Translations under genes and position numbers: made by a program
The notes under the pieces: model-generated
What the model saw: the letters and a program-made list of their open reading frames with translations, nothing else
Database searches by the model: none
Told to the model about the DNA's origin: nothing
In this document: in pieces, positions 1,118 through 44,954 of the stretch
How the letters are laid out: each line of letters begins with the position of its first letter
Position numbering within the stretch: the stretch's first letter is position 1
Assembly: GCA_023391105.1 (NCBI GenBank)
Contig: JAEWBO010000040.1
Coordinates: 39,265-103,264, forward strand
From: Bacillota bacterium
GTDB lineage: Bacteria > Bacillota > Clostridia > Christensenellales > SZUA-584
Direction: 5' to 3'
DNA: 64,000 bases

Positions 1118-3085
1118 ATGGCCAAAGAATACAGTGCGAGCGATATACAGGTGCTTGAGGGGCTCGACGCAGTACGCAAACGCCCCGGCATGTATATCGG
1201 TTCCACGGGCCAAAAGGGGCTGCACCATTTGCTATGGGAAATCGTCGACAACTCGGTGGATGAAGCGGTCAACGGCTATGCCGACAAAATCAGTGTAACG
1301 CTGCACACGGATAATTCCGTCACCGTCGAAGACAACGGACGGGGCATTCCCGTGGGATTGCATCCTGAAAAGAAAGTATCCGGCGTGGAGGTTGTGTTTA
1401 CACAACTGCACGCAGGCGGCAAGTTTAACAGTGACTCATATACATACTCGGGCGGTCTGCACGGTGTGGGCGCATCTGTTGTCAACGCGCTGTCGCGCTG
1501 GCTCCACGTCACCGTCTGCGTGGGCGGCAAAATATATGAACAGCATTATGAAAGCCGTATGAAAAGCGGCAAGGTGGAAAGCGGTCGGCCAATCACCAAG
1601 CTTGAGGAAAAGGGCACCACGAAAAACCGCGGCACCAAGATCACGTTTTTGCCGGATGACCGCATTTTCGAAACCATCAGTTACAACTTTGATACCGTTG
1701 CGTCGCATCTGCGCGTGATATCCTTTTTGAGCAAAAACGTCAAGATCGCGCTTATCGATGAGCGCAGCTTAAAGGACGGTCGTCCCAAGAAAATCGTGTT
1801 CGATTATCAAGGCGGCATTGTTGATTTCGTGCAATATCTCAACGAAGAAAAAACTGTGCTGCATAAAACGCCTATCTACTTCGATGGCGAAAAAAACGAC
1901 GTGCGCGTTGAGATCGCGATGCAGTATAACGACACCTACAATGAAAACATACTTTCCTTTGTGAACAATATCAACACAGCGGACGGCGGTACTCATGTCT
2001 CGGGATTCAAGGCCGCACACACCAAGGTGATGAACGAATACGCAAGGACTGCCGGTCTGTTAAAAGAAAAAGAGGACAACCTCTCAGGTGACGATTACCG
2101 GGAAGGGCTGTGCACCATCATCAGCATCAAGATGAAGGATGCTCAGTTTGAAGGCCAGACTAAGGCTAAGCTTGGCAATACCGATGTCAAAACCATTGTG
2201 GAAAGTATCGTACAAGAAAAGCTCTCCCTATTCTTTGCAGACCTTAACCACACCGCGATCGCGAGTGAACTCGTGGGCAAGGCCGTGAAGGCCGCCAAGG
2301 CAAGAGAGGCCGCTACCAAGGCCAAGAAGCTCGAGCGCCAGCGCAGCAAGCTGGAGGGCGCGCCGCTCGTCGGCAAGCTTTCAAGCTGCTCAGGCCGTGA
2401 CGCCAAAAGCAATGAGCTTTTCATCGTGGAGGGCGACAGCGCGGGCGGCAGCGCCAAGCAGGGCCGTGACCGCAAATTTCAGGCGATCCTCCCCCTTCGC
2501 GGCAAACCGCTTAACGTGGAAAAGAAGCGCCTTGATCAGGTGATTGAGAACAACGAATTCCGGTCGATCATCACCGCTCTTGGCACCGGCTTCGACGGCG
2601 TTTTTGAAGAAGCTGATCTCAAATATCACAAGATCATCATACTCGCGGACGCAGATCAGGACGGCGCGCACATCCGCGCGATATTGCTGACCTTCTTCTA
2701 CCGTTATTTCCGTGATCTGCTGACGGCGGGTCATATCTTCATTGGGCGTCCCCCGCTGTATCGCGTTCACAAGGGAAGCAAATCCGTGTACGCCTACACA
2801 GACGCGGAGCTAAGGGCTGCGCAGCAGGAGTTTGGCAAGGAAGCCAACGTGCAGCGCTACAAAGGCCTTGGCGAAATGAACCCCGAGCAGCTATGGGAAA
2901 CCACGATGAACCCGGCACAGCGCAAGCTGTATCGCGTGGAGCTGGACGACGCGGCGGAAGCCGAGCGGCTTGTCACGCTGCTTATGGGCGATAAAGCCGA
3001 GCCGCGCAAGGAATACATTTCCGAGCACGCGAATTTCAACAAGGAAGACAGTTTTTATAAAGAGAAGGTGTTGAGCCATGCCTAA
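1118..3085 (+). CDS. parE: Type IIA topoisomerase B subunit, most likely topoisomerase IV ParE
   Basis: 655 aa. GHKL N-terminus ([18 protein letters not shown]), [25 protein letters not shown]. Sizes match the ParE/ParC pair of Bacillus. The partner lacks a GyrA box at the start of its C-terminal domain. Confidence 0.75.
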
Positions 3086-5501
3086 CAAAAACGAAGCGAA
3101 CTCAATCGATATCACGCCAGTATCCATGAGCGACATGATGCACGATTCGATGATCCCGTTTGCCGAATACGTGATAATGGACAGAGCGCTGCCCCGCGTG
3201 GAAGACGGTTTAAAGCCCGTGCAGCGCCGCATACTCTACACGATGCTGGAGCTTGGCCTCACGCCCGATAAACCGCACAGAAAATCCGCACGTATCGTCG
3301 GTGATACCCTGGGTAAATACCATCCTCACGGCGACAGCTCGGTTTACGACGCGATGGTGCGTATGGCGCAGGATTTTGTGATGCGCGCGCCGCTCGTTAA
3401 CGGCCACGGCAATTTTGGCAGCATGGACGGCGACTCCGCCGCCGCTATGCGTTACACCGAAGCGCGTCTCTCCCCCATCGCCATGGAAATGCTCGCGCAC
3501 ATCGAAAAGGACACGGTGCGCTGGTCTTTGAACTTTGACGACACATTGAAAGAACCCGACATGCTGCCCGCGCGTTATCCCAATCTGCTGGTCAACGGCG
3601 CGGCAGGCATCGCGGTGGGTCTTGCCACCAACATCCCGCCTCATAACCTTGGAGAGGTGATCGACGGCGTTGTCGCGCGAATCCGCAACCCGGAGCTCTC
3701 GCTCGAAGAGCTCATGGAACTGATTCCGGGGCCTGACTTCCCCACGGGCGGCTATCTGCTCAACCTTGATCAGCTTAAAGAAGCATACGCCACGGGCCGT
3801 GGCAAGATCGCCATGCGCGCCAAGACGACCATTGAGAAAGGCCTTAACGGAAAATCGCTGATCGTCATCAACGAAATGCCGTATCAGGTCAACAAAGCAG
3901 CGATGCTTGAAAAAATTCTGCAGATCACCGAACAGAAAAAAGAGATGTTCGCGGGAATATCGGACATCCGTGACGAGTCTGACCGCACCGGTCTGCGCGC
4001 AGTCATTGAGGTGCGCAAGGACTATGATCCCAAAACGATACTCAACTGTCTGTACAAATATTCGGATATGCAGACGACGTTCGGCATCAACATGGTATGC
4101 ATCGCGGACGGCCAGCCCAAACAGCTCTCTCTGATGAGCATCATCGACCACTATATCCGTTTCCAAAAGGAAATCGTCACACGCCGCACGCAATATGATC
4201 TGGAAAAAGCGCGGCAGAGGGAGCATATCCTCGCCGGTCTCATCATCGCGGTTAAAAATATCGATGAAGTGATCCGCATCATCCGCGGCTCATCGTCTCC
4301 CAAGGAAGCGCGTGACAAACTGATGAAACGCTTCGATTTATCGCATATTCAGGCACAGGCCATACTCGACATGCGCCTTGCAAGGCTGACCGCGCTCGAG
4401 ATCGAATCGCTCGAAAAAGAGTATGCCTTCATTCTTGAAACCATTGCGCGGCTTGAAGCGATTCTCGCATCTGAGCAAAAGCTCATGAGCGTCATTATCC
4501 ACGAGCTCACCGAGATCAAGGAAAAATACGGTGACAAACGCCGTACGAAAATACTCGATACAAACCATGAAATCGAGATCAACGAAGATGAGTTTAAATC
4601 GGTTGAAGAGTGCGTGATTATACTCACGAACGGCGGCTTCTTAAAGCGCATCAATCAGAAATCGTTCCAGAAGTCTGTTCAAAGTGAGGACGACGGTGTG
4701 AAAAGCATCGTGCCGTCTGCGACGAATCTTCGCGTTCAGATATTCACGAACCTTGGCACGCTCTATACCCTGCCCGCTACAGATATTCCGGACTGCAAGC
4801 TCAAGGACAAGGGCAAGCCGCTGTCTGCGATCATCGCGGGTATCGATCCAAAAGAAAGCATTGTGGGGCTTTTCTCTGTTGCCGATTACAATACTGGCGG
4901 CGTCTTCTTTGTCACACAAAACGGGCAAATAAAACGCACGCATCTGTCGGAATACGATGTGCGCAACAAAAAAATTGCGGCCTGCGGCCTTGCAGAGGGC
5001 GACAGCATCATCTCTGTGAATCTGCTTAAGGATGAAAGCGACTGGATGATAGTCACCAAACTCGGCATGGGTATCCGCTTCTCATCCGAAGACGTGAACC
5101 CCATGGGCCGCAGCGCCAAGGGTGTAAAAAGCATCACACTGCAAAAGGGCGACTGCGTCGTCATGGCTGCACCCGTCTCCGAACAAGACGATATGGCGCT
5201 GTTTACCGACCTTGGCTACGCCAAGCTCACGCGCGTTTATCTGTTTGAAACGCAGAAACGTGGCGGCAAGGGCTTAAAAGCGGTATCGCTGCTCAAAAAC
5301 GGCACCACCGGCACGTATGTGGCGGCGGCCTTCCCTGTTTCCGAGCCGTGCGGTATCGTCGTCACGCTGAAAAGCGGACAAAGCTTTTCGCTCTCCTCCG
5401 AGCAGCTCGACCGGCAGGACAGAAACGCCAAAGGCAGCTCCGCGGTGCTGGCCGTGCTGGGCGACTGCGTGGTATCGGCGGGCAAATCGTTCCTCGCGTA
5501 A
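3078..5501 (+). CDS. parC: Type IIA topoisomerase A subunit, most likely topoisomerase IV ParC
   Basis: 807 aa. HPHGD and [11 protein letters not shown] (catalytic Tyr region). 8-nt overlap with the B subunit. No QRRGGKG motif directly after the coiled coil. Confidence 0.75.
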
Positions 5502-27986: not shown

Positions 27987-28126
27987 GATCTTAACCTTCC
28001 TGTTTCTTATTAATATTGTTTGTAAATAACCTTAAAAAATATCTAGTCCTGTCAATTCCAAGTAAGCTTTATATTATGGAATTATGCATAGAAATATTCT
28101 CTTCGCCTAAAATAGGCACACAAAAA

Positions 28127-28331
28127 GACGTGCCGACATGGGCACGCCACAATCCGTCAATAAATTCTATTTTGTCGTTCCGAGCCTGTCGACTACGGTA
28201 GTGGACTGGAATCCCATGAAAAATGCTTTGTTGAAGGGGATTTCAATCCACTACGGAGTCGATCGCTGACGCTCAATCGGAGTGACATAAGTAACTTATT
28301 TGACACTCTGAAGCGTGCTGATGGGCACGCT
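28127..28331. repeat. Palindromic non-coding repeat element, copy A (MITE-like), bracketed by a duplicated hairpin
   Basis: Core 28152-28303 recurs as the reverse complement at 43339-43472. Flanking direct repeats are acgtgccgacatgggcacgcc and gcgtgctgatgggcacgct. No conserved ORF. Confidence 0.75.
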
Positions 28332-28348
28332 AATCTTCCGATGGAAAA

Positions 28349-28879
28349 CTAGTTTTTCATAAGCAAGCGCCGCAAATTGTTGAAGTAGTACGAGGTGACC
28401 TTATCATACAGAAAATCATAAATCACGAACGCCACCTCCGCCAGCACCACGAAAAGCCAAAAAGCCACACCTGTGCTTAATACATCCTCATAGATGATCT
28501 GCTGGGCAAGCAGGTAAACGAGCCCAAGTGCCACATTATAATAGAGCAGCTTGACGATGTATGCCGCCACCTTGTCTTTAATGCGTGTTTGAATATAGTA
28601 CTTACCGATGCCGTAATGTCCAAAGAAAATCACATAAGGAAGCACCCGAATGATATTTGGCATCAACAGCAGCGACATCAGGGACACTCCAATATACATG
28701 AGAACAGCAAGGCCGATTTCTTCCTCTATCACCAGCCCCATTATGAAGATTGAGCTCAGAAAATACATCGCGATGCGCCCCGTCGGCAAAACAGAAGCCA
28801 AGTACAAGAACAACAGCGACATGGATGCAAACATGGCCGTTAGGCTGACCCGGTGTGCGGTACGGTGAAAACGCGGCAT
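28349..28879 (-). CDS. Polytopic membrane protein of unknown function
   Basis: 176 aa, about 5 TM. Last gene of the DUF5685/J-protein operon (25-nt gap). Confidence 0.5.
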   Translation of the reverse strand: MPRFHRTAHRVSLTAMFASMSLLFLYLASVLPTGRIAMYFLSSIFIMGLVIEEEIGLAVLMYIGVSLMSLLLMPNIIRVLPYVIFFGHYGIGKYYIQTRIKDKVAAYIVKLLYYNVALGLVYLLAQQIIYEDVLSTGVAFWLFVVLAEVAFVIYDFLYDKVTSYYFNNLRRLLMKN

Positions 28880-41563: not shown

Positions 41564-42472
41564 TTGAATCTATTTAAGGTTGCATGTATGAAAAATCTTT
41601 TAGATCCGTTTAAAGAGACGATATGCATCACCATAAGCTCAAAGAATCTTGCACATAAAATGCCTGTCTGCATTGCGGTGCGCAAGGTTTTTCTTATTGC
41701 TGCCGGATTTGTTTTCGTCTGCGCAGTGGGACTGGGCGCCTTTGCAGGCATCAGTACTTATATCAGAATGGACAAACTCAATTTAGCCATGAATGACATG
41801 GAAACGGAGCGCGATGTCGCTTTGGCCGCACTAAGCAGCATTGTCATTCCTCAGCAAACATCTGCCGCCGATTCAGAAGTGTCCGAAGACAAAGCAATGC
41901 CGGTCATTTGGGGTGATGAAGTTGCGGTGGACGGTTCAGAGGATTCCGAGCGTCTATCCGATCCTTGGCTGACAGTGGAAGCCGCACCCATTGTGGAAAG
42001 CATTCAGTACGATAACGGCAGCGTCAACGGGCATGTCGAGCTGATCGACTGGTTCAATGGCGGATCGGAATTGTATTCCCGGTATACCGAAGCAACAGTC
42101 ATTGATGTGGAAACGGGGCTCTCGTTCCATGTTCGCCGCTTCGGCGGCCAATACCATGGCGACAGCGAACCGCTGACCGCTGAGGACACTGAGATCATGA
42201 AGCAGATCGTTGGCGGCGCGTGGACGTGGGACAGGCATGCCATTTGGCTGAAAATCGGTGAGCGCTATATCGCGGCATCGATGAATGGGATGCCGCATAT
42301 GACCAGCCCCACCGCCGGTAATAATTTCCCCGGGCACTTTTGCGTTCACTTCCTGCACAGCAAAGTGCACGAGACAGGGCAAGAATGCACCAAACATCAA
42401 GCTGAGGTAATCGAAGCTTTCGCAAGCGCAGATAAGCTCGATGAATACTTGTTAACGCATGAATACAAATAA
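41564..42472 (+). CDS. Membrane-anchored protein of unknown function
   Basis: One TM (VFLIAAGFVFVCAVGLGAFAGI), then about 230 aa with a His-rich end (PGHFCVHFLHSKVH). Start uncertain (ATG at 41588 possible). Stop lies 14 nt before the bactofilin start. Confidence 0.5.
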   Translation: MNLFKVACMKNLLDPFKETICITISSKNLAHKMPVCIAVRKVFLIAAGFVFVCAVGLGAFAGISTYIRMDKLNLAMNDMETERDVALAALSSIVIPQQTSAADSEVSEDKAMPVIWGDEVAVDGSEDSERLSDPWLTVEAAPIVESIQYDNGSVNGHVELIDWFNGGSELYSRYTEATVIDVETGLSFHVRRFGGQYHGDSEPLTAEDTEIMKQIVGGAWTWDRHAIWLKIGERYIAASMNGMPHMTSPTAGNNFPGHFCVHFLHSKVHETGQECTKHQAEVIEAFASADKLDEYLLTHEYK

Positions 42473-42485
42473 AGGAGCAATACAA

Positions 42486-43145
42486 ATGGCTAATATTCTC
42501 AAAAACGATGGATTGCGCACTGCGAAGAATCTTCCCGATGCGACTATACCACCCGGCACTGTGTTCACCGGTGATATTGAAACGGCCGGCGGCGTCCGCG
42601 TTGATGGGACTGTGAAAGGTAAGGTTTCCGCAGGAGGCGATGTGACCATCGGCGTAGACGGCATTATCGAAGGCGGCGCCAAAGCATGTAATGTGAATGT
42701 CGCCGGTAAGATTATCGGAAACATCACGGCAGCGGGCGCGGCGAAAATGCTGGCGGGTTCCAAGATCGTGGGCGATCTGGCAGCTACCTGTTTTGCAATT
42801 GAAAAGGGCGCTTATTTTAAGGGCAAGTGCACGATTACCGACAACAGCGAACAACCGATGCTGAGTGCTCCTAAATCCGAATTTTCTGAATCGGCTGAGC
42901 CTAAAGCGTCTGAGCCCGAAGCGGCTGAGTCTCAAACATCTGAGCCTGAAGCAGCTGAGTCTAGGGCGGCTGAGTCCGAAGCGGCTAAGCACGAAGCAGC
43001 TGAGTCTAAGGCGCCTGAGCCCGAAGCGGCTGAATCCGAAGCGCCTAAGTCTGAAGTGATTGAGACCGAAACAAAACAGGTAGCCGAGAAAAAACAAAAT
43101 TCTGTTAAATCTTCGGCTAAGCAGAATAAACATAAGAAGCGTTGA
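42486..43145 (+). CDS. Bactofilin (DUF583) with acidic repeat C-terminal tail
   Basis: ATG at 42486 after AAAGGAG. Beta-helical core GDIETAGGVRVDGTVKGKVSAGGDVTIGVDGIIEGGAKACNVNVAGKIIGNI. Tail of (S/P)E(P/S)EAAE units. Confidence 0.8.
   Translation: MANILKNDGLRTAKNLPDATIPPGTVFTGDIETAGGVRVDGTVKGKVSAGGDVTIGVDGIIEGGAKACNVNVAGKIIGNITAAGAAKMLAGSKIVGDLAATCFAIEKGAYFKGKCTITDNSEQPMLSAPKSEFSESAEPKASEPEAAESQTSEPEAAESRAAESEAAKHEAAESKAPEPEAAESEAPKSEVIETETKQVAEKKQNSVKSSAKQNKHKKR
42886..43056 (+). repeat. Imperfect tandem coding repeat (about 18-nt units) in the bactofilin tail
   Basis: Repeated tctgagcc(c/t)gaagc(g/a)gctgag units read directly. They generate long spurious ORFs in other frames. Confidence 0.8.
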
Positions 43146-43311: not shown

Positions 43312-43500
43312 AAAAAGCACTCTTTCGAGTGCCTTGGGTATCAAAAAAGTTACTTTTATCATTCCGATTGAGCATAGCGATCGACTATGGAGTGGATTGG
43401 AATCCCCTTCTACAAAGCACTTTTCATGGGATTCCTCGACAGGCTCGGAATGACAAAACAGGGTTTATCGACTGACTGAGAACTCATTTGAGTGCCTTTT
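43312..43500. repeat. Palindromic non-coding repeat element, copy B (inverted relative to copy A, with a 15-nt internal deletion)
   Basis: The reverse complement aligns with 28152-28303. Flanking direct repeats are agcactctttcgagtgcctt (43316-35) and agaactcatttgagtgcctt (43479-98). Confidence 0.75.
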
Positions 43501-43523: not shown

Positions 43524-44954
43524 TTACGCTGAATAGGATGCATAAGGCTTGCCAGCCACGTGAATGATAGCATCCACAACTTTTGGGCAATAGCCTTTTC
43601 CCCTCATTTCAATCAAACGCTTTGTGACGTCGCCAAAACTTTCCGTACCGGATGAAATAATATCGTCGAAGCCGCGGACACCCGCAATGATGCGGCTGGC
43701 GAGCGGGAGCATATCCTGCCACTTGTCATAGCGTTTATGTATATCAAGGTAAAGCTCCTGCATATCCTTTAGTTCGTCCACCTTGCTGATGATTTCACGA
43801 CCATTGACCACATGCAGCATATAATCATCCAGATCCTTGCCGGACAGGTTCAATCTATTTTTAATAAGCCTGTCGTCCACGCTGATAAGGCCAATATCCG
43901 CTATTTTGGCAAGCACCTTTATCTCGCTGATATATTCTTCATTACATCTGAGCGCCGCGGCCACCTGTGACGAAAGGCTTTGCAGCCTGATTTGGCGCTT
44001 GCCCCAGCCCACCTTTTTTTCAATAATATCGTTCATACTGTCGATAACAGTGCTTTCGGTGAGCACCGTGTGTATGGCTTTGTTTTTGCGCATTTTATGA
44101 AGCGCCTGACGGTATAGATCGCAAAAGCTTATTGCCTTGTCAGTCGCCGCATGACCAAAACTGACATCCGTTTTGATAAGATTCATGTACATGCCATGAA
44201 GCATCATGCGCGCTTGTTTGATCTTATTGTCAATTTCGAGCTGTCCTATACCCGCATACACAGCGCAATATTCCCCGCCGCCGATACGCGCAATCATCTC
44301 TGCGTCGAAGAAGCATTCTCTGATAACCTCAGCCACATTTTTTATCAGCGTGTTGCCCGCGTTATAGCCGAATAAGTTGTTAATTTCATTGAACCTGTCT
44401 ATCTTGGCAACGATCAGCGTCTGCGGGTACATGCCGAATCTAAAAAAATCATTGACGAACGAATCGAGCGCACTGGCGCTGGAAAGGCCTGTCAACGCGT
44501 CATGGTCTTGAATATCTTCACGACTCATCTTGTGAGGCTCGGACGATTTTTGCTCATATGCATAACCAACGGCAAACACACGGTCATCATTGGCAACGGC
44601 CATACCTTTTGCTTCATAGCATTGCAACCGTCCTTCGTGGAAATATCTGATTTTCAGATTGATCTGACGGCGTTCATAGCTGGAAATAAAGGAGACAGCA
44701 GAGCGCAATGGCGATATATCATCTTCATGGATATTTTCTAGCAGCTGCTCAAAGGAAAGGACCGATTCCAGTCCTGTTTTCAAATCGGTTAAAATGAAAT
44801 CTCCGGATAAGAAATCTAATTCCCAAGCAAATAACGCCTGCGCACACTCGGACATATTAACTGAATCAAACATGCCCATCTGTTCGCACACTGTGTGGTT
44901 TTTATTAAAAAAGTGGCTGGAGTGCTCACGGTTTATATCTTCAAATAAGTGCAC
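43524..44954 (-). CDS. PAS-like / degenerate GGDEF / degenerate HD-GYP protein
   Basis: 476 aa. GGDEF domain with GGGEY in place of GG(D/E)EF and no RxxD. The C-terminal region is colinear with HD-GYP, but HD is AD (KIADIGL), HHE is IHK, and GYP is missing. Confidence 0.65.
   Translation of the reverse strand: MHLFEDINREHSSHFFNKNHTVCEQMGMFDSVNMSECAQALFAWELDFLSGDFILTDLKTGLESVLSFEQLLENIHEDDISPLRSAVSFISSYERRQINLKIRYFHEGRLQCYEAKGMAVANDDRVFAVGYAYEQKSSEPHKMSREDIQDHDALTGLSSASALDSFVNDFFRFGMYPQTLIVAKIDRFNEINNLFGYNAGNTLIKNVAEVIRECFFDAEMIARIGGGEYCAVYAGIGQLEIDNKIKQARMMLHGMYMNLIKTDVSFGHAATDKAISFCDLYRQALHKMRKNKAIHTVLTESTVIDSMNDIIEKKVGWGKRQIRLQSLSSQVAAALRCNEEYISEIKVLAKIADIGLISVDDRLIKNRLNLSGKDLDDYMLHVVNGREIISKVDELKDMQELYLDIHKRYDKWQDMLPLASRIIAGVRGFDDIISSGTESFGDVTKRLIEMRGKGYCPKVVDAIIHVAGKPYASYSA

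Follow-up and report, generated by a model that had tools for sequence, protein, structure and literature searches.

A probable MITE-like element family of uncultured Christensenellales-like Bacillota with duplicated terminator hairpins at its flanks

In terms of insertion behaviour, the closest described relatives of the element discussed here are insertion sequences of the IS30 family in mycoplasmas. IS1630 of Mycoplasma fermentans produces target duplications of variable length, given as 19-26 bp in PMC2853133 and as 16, 23, 25 and 26 bp in PMC3317919. ISMhom-1 of M. hominis, also of the IS30 family, behaves like IS1630 and duplicates inverted repeats (PMC7648426). In staphylococci, the targets of IS1272 (IS1182 family) are stem-loops of unrelated sequence, 21-85 bp in length and usually located just 3' of genes (PMC5678879). 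The model put forward for this element contains a 'pathway b', in which strand transfer at the 5' feet of the stem-loop results in the entire stem-loop being duplicated; IS1272 itself follows an alternative pathway, by which the stem-loop is deleted and no target duplication arises (PMC5678879). Bacterial MITEs (Correia/NEMIS, RUP, ERIC, Nezha, MITEAba12 and others) are small, non-coding, multi-copy and intergenic (PMC10969869, PMC3184786), and the target duplications described for them are short and of fixed length, 5 bp being one example (PMC3184786). Two reviews on bacterial MITEs do not mention one that duplicates a whole terminator hairpin. REP/BIME-RAYT biology concerns inverted doublets that are extragenic and often lie behind genes (PMC3333891).

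Here we describe two copies of a small non-coding element in a 64-kb stretch of DNA (64,000 nt, referred to as the window), together with their relatives in other genomes. Weighing the evidence presented below, we think it likely that the family is a MITE-like non-autonomous DNA transposon of uncultured Christensenellales-like Bacillota, the insertion of which is directed by structure to intrinsic terminators.

Two copies in the window and their host genes

Copy A of the element occupies positions 28149-28311 of the plus strand (163 nt), as delimited by aligning it to copy B and to 13 further copies (nhmmer E = 1.5e-45). Copy B lies on the minus strand at 43336-43478 (143 nt) and was located by repeat search, alignment and nhmmer. 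The first-pass annotation of the window, made from the sequence by eye, had described a core at 28152-28303 that recurs in inverted orientation at 43339-43472, and both the repeat search and the alignment recovered two copies at essentially those coordinates. The two copies share three inverted collinear matches in the repeat search, 28150-28192/43436-43478 (84% identical), 28208-28267/43376-43435 (90%) and 28271-28306/43338-43373 (86%). According to the pairwise alignment, the 15 nt of the left inner arm (CTACGGTAGTGGACT), which belong to the module denoted M1 below, are missing from copy B. An initial estimate of roughly nine identical positions in ten was somewhat generous, since identity outside the indel is 84-90% and the 15-nt gap in copy B comes in addition. 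Within the window, the nhmmer profile finds copies A and B only, and the number of chance matches expected there is zero for core strings with 22-23 specified bases (patterns of 24-25 positions).

The element has no coding capacity. The ORF that begins at a shared ATG is 17 aa long in copy A, 5 aa in copy B and 4-49 aa in other copies, some of these frames extending past the end of the extracted sequence, and in four copies the stop follows codon 5. There is no conservation of this ORF across copies, in agreement with what had been read from a short frame in copy A and five codons in copy B. A conserved RBS-like GAGG with its ATG was also considered as what is left of the beginning of a transposase gene. 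When the 49-aa read-through ORF was used as a protein query, only three tiny ORFs of other copies were returned, and this candidate was rejected.

Copy A lies 37 nt downstream of a 176-aa membrane-protein gene (28349-28879, minus strand; from the ORF list), the terminator of which is its target, and upstream of an encapsulated-ferritin/encapsulin operon. Synteny around this gene extends to loci of the same species (L001-L010) and of related species (L109-L111), and copy A is present in all ten of the same-species contigs examined. The target of copy B is the terminator of a 476-aa GGDEF/HD-domain gene (43524-44954, minus strand; from the ORF list, with the domains taken from Pfam domains of homologues). 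Copy B is 45 nt downstream of this gene, 25 nt separating the gene from the proximal hairpin copy, and the gene converges on a bactofilin gene. Named homologues of the flanking proteins belong to Christensenellales or Eubacteriales MAGs. The window starts with gyrB and gyrA and has ordinary housekeeping genes aboard.

No transposase was found in the window, consistent with the initial remark that a matching one is absent. The search consisted of Pfam on 20 ORFs of at least 200 aa outside 18-48 kb, of same-species gene tables for 18-38 kb, and of orthologous loci for part of 38-48 kb, so that coverage extended to most ORFs of at least 200 aa. The E. coli IS30 transposase was compared to the window and related loci by tblastn, with a best E of 2.2. 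The first-pass annotation had also proposed looking for an autonomous element that shares the termini. Neither copy had a blastn match in plasmid and phage collections, and no solitary element ends that would mark a longer autonomous element occur in the window or in the related loci collected. Scans of viral contigs with the left and right ends returned 21 and 68 stretches, respectively, none of which fits the element profile.

Copies in other genomes and the internal hairpin module

Five Bacillota MAG species, together with metagenome contigs, contain at least 17 further copies beyond A and B, so the possibility raised at first reading, that only two copies exist, does not hold. The genome-collection scan, which used 20 specified core bases and gives a lower bound because it demands one exact 20-mer, returned 15 loci, 14 of them true. 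The remaining one (L101) was a chance hit of the 20-base core pattern and was discarded. The 14 true loci are 70-88% identical and come from five 'Bacillota bacterium OH_*' MAG species, namely JAEYLC01 (OH_HFB_48), JAEWQS01, JAEYPO01, JAEYKW01 and JAEZGK01. The additional copies are second copies at L105 and L107, a copy at L217, and L110, a diverged subfamily present twice. Up to five loci per MAG, a lower bound, were counted with the single exact 20-mer, and two copies are in the window. Several copies lie at contig ends, as would be expected of a repeat that breaks assemblies. The hosts of the family are uncultured Clostridia-like gut/digester bacteria.

Across the family, copies are 127-163 nt long and non-coding, and every copy is placed 20-100 nt past a stop codon. 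Both orientations relative to the upstream gene occur (6 sense and 5 antisense). The copies of OH_HFB_48 are 98.6-100% identical to one another, which points to recent activity.

From left to right, copy A is composed of a left terminal segment, module M1, a spacer, module M2 and a right terminal segment. Module M1 (28174-28215, plus strand) has the form GTCGTTCC-GA...GGAATCCC with an optional 15-nt arm, and module M2 (28236-28286, plus strand), of the form GGGGATTTC...GGAGTGAC, is approximately its reverse complement; both are delimited by the module definition and by stem covariation. The conserved spacer between them, ATGAAAAATGCTTTGTTGAA, was placed at 28216-28235 of the plus strand by alignment. 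In the alignment of 15 copies, the M1 consensus is GTCATTCC-GA..loop..GA-GGAATCCC, followed by the 20-nt spacer ATGAAAAGTGCTTTGCAGAA, the conservation of which arises partly from the core search pattern itself, and then by M2 as GGGGATTCC..loop..GGAATGAC. Depending on the copy, an optional arm of 15-18 nt is carried by either one of the modules, by both or by none; therefore, the long perfect-looking palindrome of copy A is one variant and not the norm of the family. The initial description of the core as a long imperfect palindrome is thus accurate for copy A, but what it describes is really an inverted pair of a small hairpin module. The element ends, CAGGCTGTCGATAAA ... TTTTTTGACACTCTG, match as inverted repeats at about 12 of 16 positions. 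They are short and less conserved than the interior, the spacer and the loops being better conserved than the ends. As the whole element is palindromic, these terminal inverted repeats are not independent evidence for a DDE enzyme.

The fold of copy A plus its flanking repeats (28120-28340) has an energy of -84.5 kcal/mol (z = -6.6). The two-module structure and the single long hairpin of the energy fold were each scored on the alignment. In the former, pairing holds in 98% of cells, changes on both sides affect three pairs, and none of 500 shuffles reaches the score, a control that related sequences alone can beat without any structure; in the latter, pairing holds in 92.7% of cells, and its score is equalled by 65 of the 500 shuffles. 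A compensatory change in M1 turns TTCC/GGAA into TGCT/AGCA in L110, and one in M2 turns ATTCC/GGAAT into ATTCT/AGAAT in L097, L103, L105 and L110. These changes favour the two module hairpins, and the single long hairpin was rejected as the conserved structure.

The same data bear on the possibility that the element is primarily a structured RNA, either an sRNA gene or a cis-acting 3'-UTR element such as an mRNA stabiliser or regulator, with functional hairpins and only secondary mobility. The first-pass annotation had offered a version of it, a family of sRNA genes embedded between terminators. The very stable fold, the paired and doubly changed module stems, and the conservation of spacer and loops above that of the ends are what such an RNA would show, and the element is probably within a 3' UTR after insertion, given that the gene-proximal hairpin described in the next section is without a T-tract. 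However, the mixed orientation fits poorly, optional arms are one-sided in many copies, and RNAalifold yields a weak consensus (-11.8 kcal/mol) to which covariation adds no net bonus. Counts of G-U versus A-C show no clear strand bias, there is no consistent promoter, and the shuffle result is open to the effect of relatedness just mentioned. Rfam 15 at its gathering threshold gave no match over the whole 64 kb, so that no Rfam family matches the core, and in a permissive scan of the locus the best model was a miRNA with 26 bits against a threshold of 89. We therefore regard a structured RNA as quite unlikely to be the main explanation, and the embedded-sRNA version as a poor fit. An Rfam scan of four module-rich contigs yielded nothing relevant to the element; two Acido-Lenti-1 RNAs, elsewhere in L116, were the sole real matches.

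Judged by its sequence pattern, the interior of the element consists of two inverted copies of a small and widespread hairpin module, GTCAT-stem-GA...GA-stem'-ATC. In the form GTCAT-NNN-GA...N'N'N'-ATC, this module is single in high-GC viral contigs (L017, L019/L024/L054), and in unrelated metagenome contigs it forms doublets (L123) and arrays that run in both orientations (L120). The unrelated metagenome and viral contigs that carry it include L017, L054, L114-L116, L120 and L123. Its stems, seen as TTCC, TTCT, TGCT, TTGC, TCCT and TCCC, covary, and a regular expression that requires complementarity is expected to hit 0.09 times per shuffled 64 kb. A 15-mer scan of viral contigs returned 83 stretches, mostly chance, and it exposed the short module in unrelated phage-like contigs. 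A literature search with literal sequences gave no published name for the module, its matches being primers and unrelated items only. Neisseria-type DNA uptake sequences were considered and are absent.

Such a doublet could suggest a REPIN-like history, in which a domesticated HUH/Y1 transposase (RAYT or an IS200/IS605-like TnpA) recognises the module and moves an inverted pair of REP-like hairpins in the form of single-stranded DNA. The two inverted copies of one module, its occurrence as single, doublet and array in unrelated contigs with covarying stems (0.09 hits per 64 kb being the chance expectation), and the preference of the compensatory changes for two separate hairpins over one long hairpin would all be in keeping with it. 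Yet target duplications of 16-27 nt are the rule here (see below), whereas neither REPINs nor single-strand transposition of the IS200/IS605 type is known to make a target duplication. The Y1_Tnp family is absent from the Pfam tables of the window and of the loci that have tables, and extra terminal segments beyond the modules act as element ends. We consider the REPIN-like history unlikely on these grounds, and the MITE-like transposon remains the reading that we follow in the next section.

Duplicated hairpins, empty sites and a proposed mechanism

Both copies in the window are bracketed by direct repeats that are themselves hairpins. At copy A, the gene-distal hairpin (28127-28148, minus strand) reads GGCGTGCCCATGTCGGCACGTC on the minus strand and is called in the terminator scan with 8 pairs followed by TTTTTGTGTG, the T-tract covering 28126-28120. 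The gene-proximal hairpin (28312-28331, minus strand) begins 17 nt past the stop codon of the 176-aa gene, is without a T-tract and is not called in the terminator scan. The two repeats (28127-28148 and 28312-28331) are identical at about 16 of 19 positions, with a 2-nt indel in the loop. At copy B, the gene-distal hairpin (43314-43335, minus strand) reads AAGGCACTCGAAAGAGTGCTTT and then TTATG, has a T-tract and was found in the terminator scan. The gene-proximal copy there (43479-43498, minus strand; AAGGCACTCAAATGAGTTCT) is degenerate, with a fold of just -3.5 kcal/mol, and was recognised as a direct repeat; 17 of 20 positions agree between 43498-43479 and 43335-43316. At both loci, therefore, a T-tract and a terminator-like call belong to the gene-distal hairpin only. 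The first-pass annotation had seen approximately 20-nt direct repeats that are GC hairpins specific to each locus, and had taken the left hairpin at copy A to be the terminator of the membrane-protein operon and the right one to be a copy without the tract. Both observations stand.

The same annotation had asked whether the flanks of other copies are also locus-specific, and hairpin direct repeats, each different, were found at most of them. Flanks were read in element orientation and scored against 300 flank shuffles, none of which did as well as the perfect and near-perfect repeats among those scored. The repeat is perfect at L096 (GGAGGCCACTCGGCCTCCT, 19/19), at the second copy of L107 (GAACTTCCCCCATGGGGGAAGT, 22/22), at L095 (ACAGCCGCACATGATGCGGCTGT, 23/23) and at L099 (TTTCAAAAGGAGCCTTGG, 18 nt, 18/18). 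It is also perfect between L104 (left) and L102 (right), two contig ends that belong to a single insertion in one MAG (AAAAAAACGTCTTTCGACGTTTTTTA, with both the A-run and the T-run included, 26/26). Near-perfect repeats are those of L098 (AAGCGCCGCATATTACGGCGCCG, 22-23 nt, 22/23) and of the second copy of L105 (CTTCCCTTTTTAGGGGAAGT, 20 nt, 19/20), and the 23-nt repeat of L217 has mismatches in the loop only. The repeats are imperfect at the two window copies and at the first copies of L105 and L107. A convincing hairpin repeat is absent at three copies, L097, L100 and L103; at L097 there is a mere 5-nt GTCTT repeat, and the site is without a real hairpin, a case that may hint at an enzyme with an intrinsic stagger of about 5. 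About a dozen hairpin targets were tabulated, with stems of 6-11 bp, and every one has a different sequence. In the five copies measured by hand, the duplication is 16-27 nt long and equals the complete stem-loop plus or minus a few nt. Its length thus tracks the palindrome and not a fixed stagger. Mismatches between paired hairpin copies are mostly in the loop (the two window copies, the first copy of L107, and L217), and this suggests that both stems may still be under constraint.

In order to distinguish insertion from hairpins that pre-exist in pairs, an alternative that had been raised at the outset, orthologous loci without the element were compared. L109 and L111, whose orthologues of the 176-aa protein are 95% and 89% identical, respectively, have the same neighbours but no copy A and a single terminator. 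The intergenic length at this locus is 362 nt in the window versus 176 nt in L109 and 151 nt in L111. The single terminator of L109 is GCGTGCCCATAGCGGCGCGC followed by TTTTTT, and it corresponds to the gene-distal hairpin of copy A. For copy B, L125 (77% orthologue of the locus) is without the element and has one AAGGCACTTGAAAAAGTGC hairpin followed by TTTTTTT, which matches the gene-distal hairpin. The empty orthologues, then, have one hairpin with a T-tract and miss about 185 nt. Since the hairpin is single in them, two hairpins were not pre-existing; the element was inserted and the hairpin was doubled.

In a further locus, L127 from a third species, the orthologue of the terminator hit by copy B carries another element, similar at its right end (AGCTTTTTTAACACTCT) and bracketed by a perfect 25-nt repeat of this terminator. 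It represents an independent hit on a target of the same kind. The duplication at L127 seems to continue to about 47 nt, past the hairpin, and this longer similarity possibly reflects an older, decayed neighbouring insertion. It might also be taken as a sign that no transposition is involved and that the hairpin-element-hairpin units originate from replication template switching, or from recombination at forks stalled near terminator hairpins. Hairpins are known replication-stalling sites, and the whole composite of about 390 nt at L110, flanking hairpins included, is the one that is present twice. On the other hand, the same sequence of about 145 nt with defined ends is found at many unrelated terminators in several species, junctions are precise, repeats are often perfect, and no microhomology is evident between element ends and targets. 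We find a replication or recombination origin very improbable.

The interpretation as a MITE-like element that duplicates the terminator stem-loop, which had been proposed at first reading, is supported by the further copies, the hairpin repeats, the empty sites with one hairpin and the absence of an Rfam family. Small size, lack of coding capacity, terminal inverted repeats, dispersed copies and a target duplication visible through empty sites are the features of a MITE; 16-27 nt is an atypical length for the target duplication of one, and a parent IS with the same ends did not turn up in the window, the related loci, the plasmid and phage collections or the viral contigs. Under this interpretation, an enzyme supplied in trans would recognise the element, either by its imperfect terminal inverted repeats (5'-CAGRSTGTCRATAAA ... 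TTTWTYGACAC(T)CTG-3'), by the two subterminal hairpin modules, or by both. The target would be chosen by palindrome structure rather than by sequence, which in practice would mean intrinsic terminators. The putative transposase would cut and carry out two strand transfers on opposite strands, at or just outside the feet of the palindrome, the simplest picture being the base of an extruded cruciform. Gap repair would then duplicate the entire stem-loop and leave a target-site duplication of 16-27 bp. With the T-tract outside the duplication, the gene-proximal hairpin would lose it, so that read-through into the element and a stop at the distal copy are likely. The host gene would keep a terminator, and the element would join its 3' UTR. 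The enzyme could resemble that of IS30/IS1630, that of IS1182, or something else; because it was not found, an IS30-like or IS1182-like assignment is an analogy and not a result.

Against this mechanism stand the failure to find an autonomous partner in the searches above, the short and weakly conserved ends, the three copies without a convincing hairpin repeat and the longer duplication at L127. The compensatory changes in the module stems also count against it, as they show a structural constraint not obviously needed by a purely selfish DNA transposon. A bolder reading, which we consider unlikely, makes the module the recognition unit of an undescribed and widespread mobility system. Its enzyme, neither IS30-like nor IS1182-like, would read both its own hairpins and the terminator cruciform, insertion at the cruciform base would always regenerate the terminator, and the Christensenellales doublets would be the best-resolved members. 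If true, the system would transpose in a new way, with the targeting of safe sites built into it.

Significance and comparison with known systems

Until now, structure-directed insertion with duplication of whole terminator hairpins has been known from a few copies of autonomous ISs in mycoplasmas. In the present case it accompanies a small non-coding element, repeatedly, in several species of uncultured Clostridia, with clean empty-site controls. The arrangement can be seen as an example of a 'safe-haven' strategy: the landing site is between a gene and the signal that terminates it, and the terminator is rebuilt behind the element, so that the host gene is not broken. Each insertion would also make a new target. 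In practical terms, such elements break MAG assemblies, as the several copies at contig ends illustrate, add spurious small ORFs to protein databases and remodel 3' UTRs. If the enzyme were identified, it would show how integration guided by DNA structure works in nature. A separate lead is the widespread hairpin module with its compensatory changes, and both it and the enzyme leave room for more novelty.

Among MITE target duplications, 2 bp (TA) is an example. Unlike described MITEs, the present element has an interior that is better conserved than its ends and a whole terminator hairpin duplicated around it. It resembles them in its inverted ends, folding into a long hairpin, flanking direct repeats and presumed movement in trans (PMC10969869, PMC3184786). 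Like REPINs and REP/BIME sequences, it contains a short conserved hairpin as an inverted doublet, and this hairpin also occurs single and clustered. It differs from REPINs in its long target duplications and in that no RAYT gene was seen in the Pfam tables, and from known REPs in that the module (GTCAT...ATC with tandem GA) is unrelated in sequence and the host range differs.

Like IS1272, the element belongs to a Firmicute and has stem-loop targets downstream of genes. In some copies of IS1272 the 25-bp left end is duplicated in tandem (PMC5678879), which may be compared with L008, where the left part shows a tandem duplication of 32 nt. IS1272 differs in being 1.9 kb long and encoding a 548-aa transposase, and the stem-loop that we observe is kept and doubled, on both sides of the element. 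The closer likeness is to IS1630 and ISMhom-1, whose targets are likewise inverted repeats or stem-loops that vary in sequence and length and often lie between genes or at their 3' ends (PMC2853133, PMC3317919, PMC7648426). In both, the whole inverted repeat is duplicated, as are the locus-specific hairpins of 16-27 nt here. The first-pass annotation had called so long a target duplication unusual; the length is borne out, but duplication of a whole hairpin has a precedent in IS1630 (PMC2853133, PMC3317919). IS1630 and ISMhom-1 are autonomous elements of Mollicutes, 1.2-1.4 kb long, whose terminal repeats measure 27 bp and whose transposase is a DDE enzyme of the IS30 type, in contrast to a non-coding element of 127-163 nt in Christensenellales-like Clostridia, which is likened to IS1630 by its insertion behaviour. 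The mode of insertion is not unprecedented: it shares the defining behaviour of IS1630 and departs from that of IS1272 and of REPINs, in which no target duplication is made.

Duplicated hairpins and other elements at terminators

Where paired copies of the duplicated terminator hairpin were compared, in the window at copy A (28127-28148 vs 28312-28331) and copy B (43316-43335 vs 43479-43498) and at two loci with further copies (L107:4800-5000 and L217:9920-10110), the differences concentrate in the loop and the stems are still complementary. This clustering of differences, together with the complementary stems, suggests that both copies of the hairpin are still under structural constraint. Alternatively, the hairpin loops may be copied less faithfully.

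In a third species, the terminator orthologous to the target of copy B carries an element (L127:5430-5660) having a similar right end and an unrelated interior. On its two sides the terminator is repeated perfectly over 25 nt, with similarity extending to about 47 nt, and the reversed module GTTTCGAGCGTAGCGAGGAAC lies inside the element's interior. In the 93% orthologue species (L110), the terminator region adjoining the encapsulin operon is occupied by another kind of repeat, a composite about 390 nt long that occurs twice within 20 kb (L110:6323-6727 and L110:10568-10970). The composite includes a copy of a diverged subfamily (GTCATGCTGAGCGTAGCGAAGCATCCC...), and two hairpins that resemble each other, AAAAACCACACG..CGTGTGG and AAAAACCACCCC..GGGGTGG, form its boundaries.

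The hairpin module in unrelated organisms

The GTCAT-stem-GA...GA-stem'-ATC module is also present in unrelated organisms as singletons, doublets and arrays, and its complementary stems come in six or more distinct sequences. Sites of this short module were located on the metagenome contigs L120 (1095 nt), L123 (240-430), L114, L115 and L116, and on the viral contigs L017, L054, L024 and L019; L054 and L024 have two identical modules in direct orientation, 2938 nt apart. In addition to the module, L116 has two tandem matches to the Rfam Acido-Lenti-1 RNA (4540-4584 and 4605-4649; 42.6 bits vs a gathering score of 37), which are unrelated to the element.

Surroundings of the two copies

The window begins with gyrB and gyrA (1118-5501) and its cumulative GC skew declines steadily along its length; it probably lies near the replication origin. 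Within the bactofilin gene (42459-43145, plus strand), in its 3' portion, are at least 12 tandem 15-nt units (42858-43086) that encode a repetitive tail rich in Glu, Ala, Pro and Ser (…SEPEAAESQTSEPEAAES…).

The left part of copy A

A promoter-like site, TCGACA-17-TAGAAT, with 10 of 12 matches, is found on the minus strand in the left part of copy A (28164-28192). It is directed at the encapsulin operon, but its function is doubtful since the distal terminator hairpin follows immediately. At the copy A locus in L008 (10520-10930), from the same species as the window, one population variant of copy A has 32 nt of its left part duplicated in tandem. The duplicated unit, ATAAATT.TATTTTGTC.TTCCGAGCCTGT.G, is flanked by two GTCRA motifs spaced 32 nt apart. 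This duplication is similar to the one reported for IS1272, where the 25-bp left end is duplicated in tandem (PMC5678879).
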